Numbered from the stretch's first letter, positions 55,167 to 63,021 are shown. The stretch: DNA of 64,000 nucleotides from an uncultured Verrucomicrobiae bacterium (GCA_963767975.1 CAVYGI010000001.1:19044-83043), one strand, 5' to 3'. Numbers and translations are program-made. The notes: generated by a model not told the origin, from the letters alone.

Positions 55167-57486
55167 TCAGCGCCCGCCCGACCACGAGTCCGCCAGGGCC
55201 TCCGCTTGCTTCAGCACCATGACGATCGCCTCTTCCTGACCTTCCGGCGGGTATTTGTATTTGCGGAGGAGTTGGCGGATCAGGATGCGCATCTTCGCGC
55301 GCACCGCGTCGCGCACCTGCCAATCCACCGTCGTGCTGGAGCGCAGCTTCTCCGTCAGCTCGGTCGCCAGCTTCTTCAGCGTCGCGTCGCCCATCGTCTG
55401 CAGCACCTCGGGCTGTTCGGCGAGGGCGTCGTAGAAGGCGATCTCGTCGGGATTGAGGCCCAGCTCTTCGTTCCGCTTCAGCGCCGCCTGCATGTCCTTC
55501 GCCATCGCGATCATCTCCGCGATGACCTGCGAACTCTCGATCATCCGGTTGTGATACTTCCGCAGCGCCTCGATCAGGCGGTCGCTGTATTTCTTCTCCT
55601 GCACGAGGTTCGTCCGCGTCTGCGCCTTGATCTTTCCCTTGAGCAGCCGTTCGAGCAATTCCACGGCGAGGTTCTTCTTCTCCATCCGCCGCACGTCTTC
55701 GAGGAACTCATCCGAGAGCAGCCCGATGTTCGGCCTCTCCAGTCCCGCCATCTGGAAGATGTCCTGCACGTCCTCCGCCTTCACCGCGTTATCGAGGATT
55801 TGCTTGAGCGCGGAATGCTTCTGCTCGGCGCTCCGCTTCTTGTTCACGCCCTCATGCTTGCGCAGCACCGCCGCGATCGCGGAAAAGAACGCCAGCTCCA
55901 GCCGCAGCGCCATCGCGCCGTCGAGCGTGGAGCAGAGCGAATAGGCCACGTTCGCCGCCGCCATCGCATCGAGGAACCGCTTCTTGCCGTTGATCTCGTT
56001 CTCGTTGCCCAGGCCGAGGATGTGATTCGCCGCCGCGGGCAGCAGCAGCATCGGGTTCGTCTTGAAGCCGCTGTAGTCGAAGCCGTGAAAGAGCGTCCGC
56101 AGCACGTCCACCCGCTTCAGCAGCTCCGCCAGCGCCTGCTCCGCCTTCAGCGTGATGTCCCCCTTGCCCTTCGCCTGCGTGTAGATGTTCAGCGCGTTCT
56201 TCAGCTCCGCGGCGATGCCGATGTAGTCCACCACCAGCCCGCCCTCCTTGCCCGCGAAGACCCGGTTCACCCGCGCGATGGCCTGCATCAGGTTGTGCCC
56301 CGCCATCGGCTTGTCCACATACATCGTGTGGCAGCACGGCGCGTCGAATCCGGTCAGCCACATATCCCGCACGATGACCAGCTTCAGCGGGTCGCGCGGG
56401 TCCTTGAACCGCCGCTCCAGCCGCTTCTTCTGTCCCTTGCTATAGACGTGATCCTGCACCGCCGCTTTGTCGGTCGCGTTGCCCGTCATCACGATCCGGA
56501 TCGCGCCGTCCTCATGGTTCCACCCGCTGCCGTTCGGCAGCTTCGATCCCGCCCACTCCGGCCGCAGCTTGATGATCTCGTCGAAGAGGCTCACGCAAAT
56601 GTCCCGCGACATCGCCACGATCATCGCCTTGCCTTCCAGCACGCTCGTCCGCGTCTCGTAGTGCTCCACCAGATCGGCGGCGATCTCCTCCACGCGTTCC
56701 TTCGCCCCCACCAGCTTCGCCAGTTCCGCCCATTTGCTCTTCGTCGATTCCCGCGCCGACACGTCCTCCTCGTCCTCGATCACTTCCTCCACGTCCTTGT
56801 TCAGCGCGTCGATCTCCGCGCGGTTGATGTCCAGCTTCGCCAGCCGGCTCTCGTAATAGATCGGCACCGTCGCCTTGTCCTCCTTCGCGTCCTCGATGTC
56901 GTAGATCGACACGTAGCCGCCAAAGGTCTCCAGCGTGTTCGCATCCGCCTGCTCGATCGGCGTCCCGGTGAAGCCGATGAACGACGCGCCGGGCAAGGCA
57001 TCCCGCATGTGTTTGGCGTAGCCGAAGACATACTTCTTCCCGATCACCTCCTTCGTCGCGCGATCCTTCACGTCCACCAGCTTCGCCTTCGTCCCATACT
57101 GCGAGCGGTGCGCTTCGTCCGTGATCACCACCACGTTCGCGCGCGTGCACAGCACCGGATGATCGCTCTCCTGGCTCTCCAGCGAGAACTTCTGGATCGT
57201 CGTGAAAATGATGCCGCCCGATTGCCGCGCCGCCAGCATCTCGCGGAGCTGCTCCCGCGATCTCCGCCTGCTCGGGCGTCTGCTTCAGGAGATCCTTCGC
57301 CGCGCAGAATTGCTGGTAAAGCTGCCCGTCGAGATCGTTGCGATCCGTCACCACGACCAGCGTCGGGTTGTTCATCTCCGGCTGCTGCAGGAGCTTCCCC
57401 GCGTAGCAGCACATCGAGATGCTCTTGCCCGAGCCCTGCGTGTGCCAGAAGACGCCCGCCTTGAACCGGGGGTGATCAGTGCTCAT
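55167..57486 (-). pseudogene. hsdR: Type I restriction enzyme R subunit remnant: N-terminal nuclease region missing, plus one frameshift near 57250
   Basis: The first available ATG (57486) gives MSTDHPRFKAGVFWHTQGSGKS, so Walker A lies about 15 aa from the start. In full-length HsdR several hundred residues normally precede it. Then VVVTDRNDLDGQL, a frame change, and ORF 55167-57239 with [14 protein letters not shown] (DEAH box) and the helicase C-terminal motifs. About 773 codons in total. Confidence 0.8.
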
Positions 57487-57521
57487 TTCATCTGACTCCG
57501 CCCCTTCTTCAGCAAACAGAA

Positions 57522-58844
57522 TTACAACGCGGTGATAGCCACAGTTGCCGACGCCCACGAATTGCGCGGAATGCTGTGCGAAATTGTAGTCTGCGGAACC
57601 GCAACACAACGATTTGCTGGGTCTGGAATCCAGTAGATAACGTTTGCTGTCGTCGGGTTGAAATTCTCCAAGACAGCCAAGACATAGCTATTCGAGTGAA
57701 GGCTCGCTTGTTGCCACTCACGATTGGTCAACGACGGCGAACACAGCCCAAGCGAGCTTTTCACTTCGACGTATCGTTTCCTGGAACCTTTTTGAGCGAA
57801 GATGTCATAACCGAGTTGTTGGCGGGAAACGACATAAGCCAGCCACCCATCCGAAATCAAAGCGGACGCAACAAACTGTTCAGCCTCCCAACCCGTGTTG
57901 ATTGCCGGAGGCGGCGTTGGCGTGCCTGATAGAACAGGGGAAGTTGGAATAGTTGTTGTCCGCGGACGGCGTGCTGACGTTCGCTGCGCTATTGTCGGGG
58001 GCACCGGCAACTGTGACGGCAGTTGCGCTCCCAGCGATGCACTTGCCGGCCAACTAGAAGACTGCGTTAGCCGCGCGTTGAGAGGATGCTGGATTGAATC
58101 ATCGAAGAACGCCGAGAATTCTGGCTGCGAAAAATTAAAATCAGCCATGAAGTCGGCCAGTCGCACGCTAGTTCGTGTCCCGAGCACCAGCCCAGGGTCC
58201 GCATCGTGATAAAGCGCGACGATCAGCGGTAAGATGGGAATTCTAACCTGCGACGGGGCTACGTATGGCTCAAAGTTTGATATGTTCTGGAGATCGGTTA
58301 CGGCGTATCCACTTCCGCCCGGATCGATTCGCAACCACTTCCTGTGACTCTCACCTCGGTAGCCAGCGCCGGAGGGACAAAGCGAACATCGTGCGTCAAT
58401 CAGTGTTCCCGCAACCGGAGTCTGCAAGTGGCGACACTGGCTTCGGTCTTGGTTTAAGAAAGTTGGACTGGAGAGGTCTGCTGGTGGTGCGTAGCAGCCG
58501 ATTCCTTTTTGAAGATTGAAATTGTTCCGCCAAGTATTCTGCGCTCCCGAGTTGCCCGGCCCAACCAAGCCGGTCCTTGCAAGGAAATTCCCTTCAAAAA
58601 GAGACAGAACACACTGGTTCGGCGGGCGCGACAACTTTGCATACAAATCATCAAGGAGCGCCTGAAGAACTTCAGTCGTGATGAACGATCCTGCATACAT
58701 ACTCGGCAGACTGTTTTGGAAGAACTTCAGGCCAAGGAAAATTTGGATGAAGCGACCCTTAAATGCTTGTCCAATAGTTTGCTTGTGTGCCCTCAAACAT
58801 CCGAGAGCGTCTTGAAACAACGTTGGATCGCTGACCGGTATCAT
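57522..58844 (-). CDS. Uncharacterised protein: N-terminal Cys-cluster domain, Pro/Thr-rich linker, C-terminal PD-(D/E)XK-like (DUF3883-like) domain; candidate restriction endonuclease
   Basis: Intact 440-aa ORF. Four Cys lie within aa 117-156 (GIGCY...SQCRH...ARCSLCPSG). The linker covers aa ~262-317 (PSQLPVPPTIAQRTSARRPRTTTIPTSPVLSGTPTPPP). The C-terminus has GYDIFAQKGSRKRYVEVKSS...LTNREW...YVLAVL, a D...E-x-K nuclease pattern. The region is AT-richer than its flanks. Confidence 0.6.
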   Translation of the reverse strand: MIPVSDPTLFQDALGCLRAHKQTIGQAFKGRFIQIFLGLKFFQNSLPSMYAGSFITTEVLQALLDDLYAKLSRPPNQCVLSLFEGNFLARTGLVGPGNSGAQNTWRNNFNLQKGIGCYAPPADLSSPTFLNQDRSQCRHLQTPVAGTLIDARCSLCPSGAGYRGESHRKWLRIDPGGSGYAVTDLQNISNFEPYVAPSQVRIPILPLIVALYHDADPGLVLGTRTSVRLADFMADFNFSQPEFSAFFDDSIQHPLNARLTQSSSWPASASLGAQLPSQLPVPPTIAQRTSARRPRTTTIPTSPVLSGTPTPPPAINTGWEAEQFVASALISDGWLAYVVSRQQLGYDIFAQKGSRKRYVEVKSSLGLCSPSLTNREWQQASLHSNSYVLAVLENFNPTTANVIYWIPDPANRCVAVPQTTISHSIPRNSWASATVAITAL

Positions 58845-61739: not shown

Positions 61740-61745
61740 GCGTGT

Positions 61746-63021
61746 TCAGTCTGCCGACTTAAAGGATTTAAAACAAGTTGAGCAGGTTAATTGATGAGGG
61801 CCTGCCGGATTTTGCCCCTCGCCGCCGGAGCCGCTGCTCATGGAGCCATTGGCGAGGAGGAGCCCCATGCTGCCCTGCGGGGCGAGGTGATGGAGCATGT
61901 GCTGGATCCAGGCGAAGTTCGCGTTGCCCCGTCTGCTCGCCCGTTTACCAGCCGCCGCTATTCCCCTCCGCCTCCTCGGCGGGGTGCCGTAGCGCCAGCG
62001 CGGGTCGCCCTCCAGCTTCGCGTCCCACCATTCGCTGATGTTGAACGGCGGATTGGCCATCACGTAGTCGGCGCGCAGGTCGGGGTGCTGGTCGCTGGTG
62101 AAGGAGTTGGCCGGTTCCTTGCCGAAATTGAAGTCGATGCCGCGGATGGCCATGTTCATCGCGGCGAGGCGCCAGGTGGTGGGATTGCTCTCCTGCCCAT
62201 AGACGGAGAGGTTGCCCAGCTTGCCGCCGTGCTCTTCGATGAAGCGCTCGCTCTGGACGAAGAATCCGCCGGAGCCCATGGCGGGATCGTAAACGCGCCC
62301 CTGGTAGGGCTCGAGCATCTCGACGATGAGCGAGACGATGGATTTCGGCGTGAAATACTGGCCACCCTTTTTCCCCTCCGCGAGGGCGAACTGGCCGAGG
62401 AAGTATTCGTAAACGTGGCCGAGGATGTCCTTCGCGTGCAGGTCGGCGTGCTCGAAGGGGATGGTGGCGATGAGGTCGATGAGGCTGCTGAGATTCGCCG
62501 GGTCGAGCTGGAGCTGGGTGTAGGTCTTGTTGAGGACGCCCTTGAGCTTCGGGTTCTCCTTCTCGACGGCATCGAGCGCGTCGTCGATGAGCTTGCCGGT
62601 GGAGGTGATCTTGTAGGTGGTGGTCTTGCCGTTCTTGACCGTGATCTCGGAGCCGGGCGGGAGCTTGGCGCTGTCCTGCAGCGTCTTCCACCGGGCGAGC
62701 GCGGGCACCCAGAAGACGTTCTTCTCGATGTAGTAGTCGCGCTCTTCCAGCTCGGCGCGGATGGCTTCGAGGTATTCGGCGCTGCCTTCGCCGCCGTAGT
62801 CGGCGGGATCGAGGAAGTAGTCGCTCTTCGGATCGCGAAGCTGGGCCTCGATCTCCCGCTGCCGCAGTGGCGAAGGAGTCGGAGACGTATTTGAGGAAGA
62901 TCAGGCCGAGGACGGCGTGCTTATAGACGGCGGCGTCGAGATTGGCGCGGAGCCGGTCGGCGGCGGACCAGAGCTTCTTGTCGAGGTCGCGGAGGAACTG
63001 CTGGGAGGTCTGCTCAGCCAT
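61746..63021 (-). pseudogene. hsdM: Type I restriction-modification M subunit remnant: frameshifted and 3'-truncated
   Basis: ATG at 63021 ([50 protein letters not shown]). A frame change follows. ORF 61746-62708 has [26 protein letters not shown] and GNANFAWIQHML...LLLANGSMSS. Homology (GKIRQALIN in a shifted frame) stops near 61790, where roughly the last fifth of HsdM should follow. No hsdS is present downstream. Confidence 0.8.

Follow-up and report, generated by a model that had tools for sequence, protein, structure and literature searches.

Restriction-modification (R-M) systems are known both to replace one another and to share their loci with other defence genes. Allelic substitution of R-M systems, including one case with a Type I S gene, was described by Furuta, Abe and Kobayashi (2010; PMC2853133), and a defence module inside an intact Type I operon is found in TgvAB of Vibrio cholerae VPI-2 (PMC11411939), a paper that also cites the rlo genes of Campylobacter and systems described by Payne et al. 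as further embedded cases. Here we analysed a stretch of 64,000 nucleotides from an uncultured Verrucomicrobiae bacterium (GCA_963767975.1 CAVYGI010000001.1:19044-83043; hereafter the window, whose coordinates are used throughout), in which positions 55167-63021 clearly hold a Type I R-M operon with its middle cut out and the gap filled by an unrelated, intact two-gene R-M cassette, consisting of a methyltransferase, M, and a putative nuclease, R. Like the substitutions of Furuta et al., this is an unrelated R-M system in the place of another, with foreign codon usage and homologues in distant taxa; there, however, whole systems were swapped between conserved flanks, whereas the flanks in the window are truncated genes of the displaced system itself, and one of these stubs recurs elsewhere. 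As with the defence genes embedded in Type I loci, a foreign module shares its strand with hsdM/S and hsdR and lies between them. Yet in those loci the hsd genes are intact and both systems work, while the insertion in the window is destructive: hsdS and parts of its neighbours are gone, and instead of intact hsd neighbours we find two genes truncated at the cassette edges. We consider it likely that a Type I operon, now dead, had an internal segment recently replaced, through recombination, by an intact and self-sufficient R-M pair of Type IIS-like character.

Every gene from 55167 to 63021 is carried on the minus strand, the co-directional layout already recognized in an initial annotation made from the sequence alone. 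The features are as follows (L and P labels denote related loci and proteins; X1, X2, X3 and X5 are metagenome runs).

61793-63021, minus strand: hsdM remnant, about the N-terminal two-thirds of a Type I methyltransferase, a pseudogene (HsdM_N and N6_Mtase; L002 alignment).
62867-62868, minus strand: frameshift 1 in hsdM, a +1-nt insertion (translations; alignment to L006, L007, L008 and L017).
61931-61976, minus strand: 45-nt in-frame insertion in hsdM, 15 Arg/Ala-rich residues between 'PP' and 'GNANFAW' (HsdM comparison).
61810-61813, minus strand: frameshift 2 in hsdM, a +1-nt insertion in an A-run (GGGGCAAAATCC versus GGAC-AAATCC in L002).
61740-61792, minus strand: left junction, 53 nt, AT-rich, from the hsdM breakpoint to the ATG of the methyltransferase gene.
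58851-61739, minus strand: M, a 962-aa methyltransferase with fused N6-methyladenine (m6A) and 5-methylcytosine (m5C) domains (TIGR02987, TIGR00675 dcm, Pfam DNA_methylase).
57522-58844, minus strand: R, a 440-aa putative restriction endonuclease of the NOV_C/DUF3883 PD-(D/E)xK type (PF13020; AlphaFold; Foldseek).
57464-57521, minus strand: right junction spacer, with an incidental ATG at 57486 and the 8-nt block CCCGGTTC.
55167-57463, minus strand: hsdR remnant, SWI2_SNF2 motor, T1R_D3 and T1RH-like_C, equal to codons 315-1080 of the intact protein (Pfam; L002 alignment).
57258-57261, minus strand: frameshift in hsdR, a +1-nt insertion (translations; alignment; metagenome contigs).
54927-55001, plus strand: tRNA-Pro(CGG), 165 nt from the hsdR stop codon (ARAGORN).

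The breakpoints are defined by intact relatives. A scan restricted to one genome per species gave 80 loci with relatives of the HsdR remnant, the closest being L002, from a Chthoniobacterales metagenome-assembled genome (MAG; 94% amino acid identity), and L001, from a 'Spartobacteria' MAG (93%). In blastn comparisons with L002, hsdM of the window aligns from 62647 to 61793 with L002 1-809 (89% identity counting a 45-nt gap, 93% without it), and hsdR from 57462 to 55189 with L002 5797-8078 (90.6% DNA identity). The homology of hsdR to both L002 and L001 begins at window 57462/57463, that is, at L002 5797 or codon 315 of 1080; the hsdM gene of L002, in turn, runs on for 552 nt (184 codons) past the point matching window 61793, and at both alignment ends identity drops within a few bases. 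Between these points L002 holds 4,987 nt (810-5796), made up of the last 552 nt of hsdM, a hsdS of 439 aa, three more open reading frames (ORFs) and 942 nt (314 codons) from the start of hsdR, and the window holds 4,329 nt (57464-61792); the cassette thus fills the gap exactly, as the initial annotation had it. Four metagenome runs provide much closer relatives, with contigs 98-100% identical to the hsd remnants (for example, 164 nt at 57287-57450 with zero differences). These contigs depart from the window exactly at 61793, where they continue as intact hsdM (…GAGGCCGA…), and exactly at 57463, where they continue as intact hsdR (…GGTGCCCGGTTCGCG…; X2, X3 and X5), and the X1 contig with the hsdM 5' end spans 62903-63300 at 98.5%, showing the same flank upstream of hsdM. 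Since near-identical intact alleles leave the window at both breakpoints, the replacement is the derived and a very recent state. Together with the L002 alignment they bear out the earlier proposal that 'hsdM 3' end - hsdS - hsdR 5' end' gave way to a cassette of 4.2-4.3 kb; one detail has to be corrected, as hsdR homology starts 9 aa before GSGKS rather than about 15 aa before Walker A, and the ATG at 57486 is junction sequence. The left junction has no homology to L002, nor to the upstream regions of other cassette copies, except for a short GTCGGCAGA block common to L089, whereas CCCGGTTC in the right junction is also present in the intact hsdR allele. No flanking direct or inverted repeats were found around the cassette.

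What is left of the Type I system cannot work. In the hsdM remnant the N6_Mtase profile of Pfam is matched at positions 2-192 of 311 only, which agrees with the end of L002 homology at 61793 and with the loss of the 3' end noted previously; the matches to hsdM are spread over two frames (61746-63054), as are those to hsdR (55167-57609). The hsdR remnant matches SWI2_SNF2, T1R_D3 and T1RH-like_C in Pfam, but not the nuclease domain PF04313, and so lacks the N-terminus, again as had been supposed. A hidden Markov model built from 55 HsdS proteins of related loci and run against all six frames of the whole window found nothing (best E = 5.6), and tblastn of the window with the HsdS of L002, its three cargo proteins, the N-terminal 314 residues of HsdR and the HsdM C-terminus gave no match; the reported absence of hsdS therefore holds across all 64 kb. 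Naturally short HsdR variants are not the norm: of the best 120 homologues in a collection of 5.8 billion proteins, nearly all measure 1040-1090 aa and contain PF04313, and in related loci with a complete hsdR the Walker A box lies about 300-390 residues into the ORF. A short HsdR that is 94% identical (P0309/L114) proved to lie in another context, as a gene either frameshifted or cut off at a contig edge. With no specificity subunit, an HsdM deprived of its C-terminal third and burdened by 15 extra residues in the catalytic domain, and an HsdR without nuclease domain, the window encodes neither HsdS, nor a full-length HsdM, nor an HsdR combining nuclease and motor.

The cassette, on the other hand, has every catalytic motif of M and R intact. 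Its closest described counterparts are the Type IIS R-M systems Alw26I, Eco31I and Esp3I (BsmAI, BsaI, BsmBI), whose methyltransferases likewise combine an m6A domain with a permuted m5C domain, the target recognition domain and motifs IX-X standing ahead of I-VIII (PMC5944983). M matches TIGR02987 over residues 24-537 (E = 5e-100; model positions 2-518 of 523) with 335.6 bits, slightly under the curated cut-off of 353.5, as well as TIGR00675 dcm and, in two stretches, Pfam DNA_methylase. Its m6A motifs are DPFCGDG (58-64) and NPPW (139-142). The m5C motifs follow one another as IX (662), X (691), I (716), IV (789), VI (829) and VIII (871), the circular permutation described for M.Alw26I, M2.Eco31I, M.Esp3I, M.BsmAI and M.BsmBI (PMC5944983). 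An exact-protein look-up of M returned nothing on record; the protein is 87-88% identical to P0121/P0122, and several homologues (44-65% identical) are named by their sources as members of the Alw26I/Eco31I/Esp3I family. Judged by its domains and motif order, M is probably a bifunctional methyltransferase of this family. M.Alw26I and M.Esp3I methylate both strands of an asymmetric site, placing m6A on one and m5C on the other. By analogy, M would methylate an asymmetric site through its N-terminal domain (m6A) and, on the other strand, through its permuted C-terminal domain (m5C). The gene is also a mosaic: positions 61560-59165 are ~90% identical to L087/L088, which belong to the type paired with an HNH nuclease, while its last 300 nt together with R are ~91% identical to a further locus, L081, those 300 nt being only ~60% identical to the HNH-paired genes. 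A body like HNH-paired genes and a tail like the NOV_C-paired gene mean that the C-terminal tail of M co-varies with the nuclease type, and the cassette itself is, on this pattern of identities, a recombinant.

The likeness to Alw26I, Eco31I and Esp3I does not extend to the nuclease, which is not an HNH RE_Alw26IDE and has no profile-profile similarity to it, nor to the layout, the genes being co-directional (M then R) rather than convergent, with no C-protein. R matches PF13020 (NOV_C/DUF3883) in its C-terminal domain (Pfam, E = 4.4e-10). Its assignment to the HNH RE_Alw26IDE family (PF09665/TIGR02986) was rejected, given that PF13020 is its only match, that NCBIfam yielded none and that hhalign against RE_Alw26 proteins gave a probability of 0.5%. 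In an AlphaFold model (predicted local distance difference test, pLDDT, 75), residues 1-273 of R form an N-terminal domain, which a disordered, Pro-rich linker (274-318) connects to an alpha/beta domain at the C-terminus. The latter matches Hjc resolvases, EcoRV and DpnI in Foldseek; for the N-terminal domain neither a PDB sequence search nor Foldseek returned a match. The catalytic triad consists of D347 and E360-x-K362, of which D347 and K362 do not vary across 36 homologues. Proteins homologous to R, 420-450 aa long, number more than 230 and are spread over many phyla. R is thus a putative non-canonical NOV_C nuclease in place of the usual HNH enzyme. The predicted order of N-terminal recognition domain, flexible linker and C-terminal PD-(D/E)xK cleavage domain is that of FokI-like Type IIS enzymes, and R would bind the same site as M, when unmethylated, through its N-terminal domain and cut nearby through the tethered PD-(D/E)xK (NOV_C) domain. 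Catalysis by DUF3883 is established for restriction enzymes such as the modification-dependent YenY4I/McaZI (PMC6765204); unlike these, R invariably comes with a methyltransferase partner, an arrangement implying that it is blocked by methylation.

The pair also occurs elsewhere. Metagenomes and genomes yielded more than 20 loci, set in unrelated contexts, where an M homologue stands directly before an R homologue on the same strand; M is there a fusion or is divided between an N6 gene and a C5 gene. For the closest relatives of M (87-88% and 78% identical) the partner is, instead, a convergent RE_Alw26IDE gene, and in one such locus (L088) a helix-turn-helix (HTH) gene, a candidate C-protein, adjoins it. 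In L096 (921-7317) an RE_Alw26-type nuclease, split N6 and C5 methyltransferases and a NOV_C protein occur together; this locus may be partway through an exchange of one nuclease for the other, or may represent a system that has two.

Composition and substitution patterns give evidence that the replacement was recent. The GC content at third codon positions (GC3) is 0.91 in the hsdR remnant and 0.86 in the hsdM remnant, against ~0.70-0.78 in neighbouring genes, and the cassette has no GC3 bias, so that hsd remnants, surroundings and cassette form three compositional layers. On the window branch, hsdR accumulated 32 synonymous and 9 non-synonymous changes in 751 codons, and hsdM 8 and 3, respectively, in 270 codons; relaxed selection on the remnants was not significant (non-synonymous to synonymous ratio, N/S, 9/32 on the window branch versus 30/192 in relatives; Fisher p = 0.16). 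Apart from their lesions the remnants have hardly decayed, and it is this scarcity of changes, along with the retained high GC3, that points to a recent event. Among the lesions, the Arg-rich insertion in hsdM was correctly spotted by the initial annotation (45 nt, 15 aa) but misplaced, the true site lying ~15 nt toward low coordinates. All of the 49 related HsdM proteins compared have exactly 2 residues between PP and NANF, and the insertion is missing in L002 and skipped precisely in four metagenome runs (join 61931->61977). The window contains no second copy of it. A derivation from hsdM 62356-62381 was discarded, as the weak resemblance (26 nt, 77%) is compatible with chance.

A second occurrence of the cassette beside hsd sequences bears on how it arrived. 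The 1.38-Mb contig L081, and independently the Logan assembly L082, carry the same cassette (amino acid identity 95% for R and 84% for M) among metabolic genes. An 89-nt scrap of hsdM and an unknown ORF of 183 aa precede it in L081, and a piece of hsdR covering residues 309-401 only, a decayed scrap of 93 codons, follows. This stub is ~67% identical to the remnant in the window, compared with ~92% for the R gene. Given that the stub starts at residue 309 and the window remnant at 315, or ~311 with the shared CCCGGTTC block included, both truncations fall within ~6 codons of each other in a 1080-codon gene. The L081 junction argues against a chimeric assembly and, as far as sequence can tell, suggests spread by recombination through hsd homology; the mosaic make-up of the cassette and the CCCGGTTC block common to junction and intact allele point the same way. 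A DNA segment with the cassette and a short hsdR stub would have recombined with a resident intact operon, the right join being formed where a crossover fell in conserved sequence directly ahead of the Walker A box and the left join being illegitimate, inside hsdM; homology-facilitated illegitimate recombination of this kind would have deleted all that lay between both joins. In the simplest reconciliation, the hsdR junction would be old and move with the cassette, and the body of hsdR in the window would come from the resident intact operon. It is possible, though we hold it doubtful, that the hsdR stub, sometimes with an hsdM scrap, serves as a homology arm that recombines, in cells with a resident Type I operon of this family, at the conserved Walker-A region and thereby removes hsdS and the gene ends beside it, so that the cassette preferentially lands in a competing Type I system and disables it.

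Several observations weigh against replacement by recombination as set out here. The spacers that separate the R stop codon from the hsdR stub in the window and in L081 show no significant similarity (p ~0.15), so that common descent of the junction rests mainly on position, and the left junction of L081 differs (the hsdM scrap and the additional ORF). The cassette occurs in 0 of the 80 related hsdR loci, and its association with hsd genes is seen in only one other lineage. GTCTC, the kind of site that Alw26I-type systems recognize and cleave at 1/5, is not clearly depleted in the window (GTCTC/GAGAC, 103 observed versus 124 expected, z = -1.9). No public run contains the window (at most 12% of its words are present) and junction words occur in none. 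Finally, some or all of the hsd frameshifts may be assembly errors. The initial annotation was right that both remnants are frameshifted; there are three +1-nt insertions (hsdM ~62867/8, hsdM 61810 and hsdR 57258-57261). None of the 98-100% identical metagenome contigs has any of them: the base at 62867/8 is not in the X1 and X2 contigs, and those at 61810 and at 57258 or 57261 are skipped in X1, X3 and X5. They may not be biological, as the same kind of +1 insertion breaks housekeeping genes in the window. A fabF-like beta-ketoacyl-ACP synthase gene (44957-46232, plus strand) is split by an extra base at ~45917, leaving Ketoacyl-synt_C positions 1-60 and 62-118 in different frames, and an extra base in this normally essential gene suggests assembly indel errors. 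A hybrid response-regulator/histidine kinase gene (52027-53332, plus strand) is split at ~52790, with Response_reg and HisKA in one frame and HATPase_c in another. The ORF of a CCA-adding enzyme (53343-55049, plus strand) overruns the end of L001 homology by ~280 nt, through tRNA-Pro, and a host-related X1 contig lacks one base at 54781 within it, probably another +1 insertion. The three hsd frameshifts, within 3.5 kb, are denser than those elsewhere in the window. The frameshifts have no bearing on the truncated gene ends, on the lack of hsdS or on the 45-nt insertion.

A slower route to the same arrangement would start from the hsdS-hsdR interval, which measures 1-6 kb in 20 related loci and regularly serves them as a cargo slot. 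In L002 (2667-4873) it holds a weak HEPN-like ORF, ThsA-Macro (PADLOC ThsA1, E = 1e-122) and ThsB-TIR (E = 1.5e-61), by these profile matches a Thoeris-like pair embedded in a Type I operon. The cassette would have entered this slot as cargo, deletions on each side would have followed, and the addictive pair would have been kept by post-segregational killing; L081, with its small hsdM and hsdR scraps and extra ORF, looks like a further eroded stage. We regard such stepwise decay as plausible but unlikely, because an intact operon with the cassette was found in none of the 80 loci, because two independent deletions are needed, each ending within ~50-60 nt of the cassette genes, and because remnants almost undecayed and 98-100% identical to intact alleles leave little time for several events. 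An assembly artefact, either a cassette contig misjoined into a normal Type I operon, between its halves, or the misassembly of a population that was mixed or had been collapsed, seems far less probable still. The lack of read support in public runs and the single-base insertions in the fabF-like, histidine kinase and CCA-enzyme genes do speak for it, as does run X1, which has an intact-type hsdM allele plus short pieces 100% identical to the cassette. But two misjoins would be needed that kept strand and order while excising exactly the operon core, the cassette abuts an hsdR stub at the same codon in L081 and the Logan re-assembly L082, and the 45-nt insertion and junction filler are not typical of misjoins. 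Hardly credible, in our view, is a functional chimera in which the truncated HsdR motor, started from ATG 57486, acts as a translocase together with the NOV_C nuclease, the latter making up in trans for the lost nuclease domain of HsdR: a GGAG 9 nt upstream of that ATG, the mostly synonymous change in the remnant, a 772-aa ORF that is open should the +1 at 57258 prove to be an assembly error, and the suggested coupling of DUF3883 nucleases to nucleoside triphosphatases/helicases (PMC6765204) are set against more than 20 loci that have this R-M pair but no hsdR, the decayed 93-codon scrap in L081, a low N/S accounted for by the recency that 98-100% identical intact alleles attest, and an hsdR ORF that is frameshifted as the sequence stands.

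Around the locus, tRNA-Pro was considered as an integration site and set aside, as the window has no tRNA 3'-end repeat and the closest relatives lack a neighbouring tRNA; from tRNA-Pro to the window end there was no sign of an integrase, and the proximity of the tRNA is adjacency only. As the initial annotation proposed, the cassette could be transcribed from the old hsdM promoter; a consensus scan of 57300-63400 found no sigma-70-type promoter, a scan that is uninformative for this phylum. Just upstream of hsdM lies a small XRE-family HTH gene (63189-63491, minus strand). CCAGG/CCTGG is among the most under-represented pentamers of the window (78 observed versus 118 expected, z = -3.7), a scarcity that may reflect a Dcm/EcoRII-type system elsewhere in the genome. 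In the related loci L003 (147-323) and L004 (7663-7779), extra copies of hsdR codons 1 to 40-60 occur 1.3-1.4 kb upstream of the real start, with a 358-aa ORF between the extra copy and the real hsdR in L003; it looks as if cargo had been inserted and the 5' end of hsdR duplicated in the process.

Overall, the locus joins two known phenomena, the substitution of R-M systems and the nesting of defence genes in Type I loci, as a fairly ordinary example of displacement, and its biology as it stands will not surprise specialists. It offers, nonetheless, a dated and base-pair-resolved case of one restriction system displacing another in a variable Type I cargo slot, with near-identical intact alleles persisting in the environment for comparison. 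If the hsdR stub is a homology arm, it would supply a concrete mechanism for competition between defence systems. R, in turn, points to an uncharacterised endonuclease family of more than 230 homologues that replaces the HNH enzyme beside Alw26I/Esp3I-type methyltransferases, and should its members cut at a fixed offset from an asymmetric site, they may constitute a new family of Type IIS reagents.

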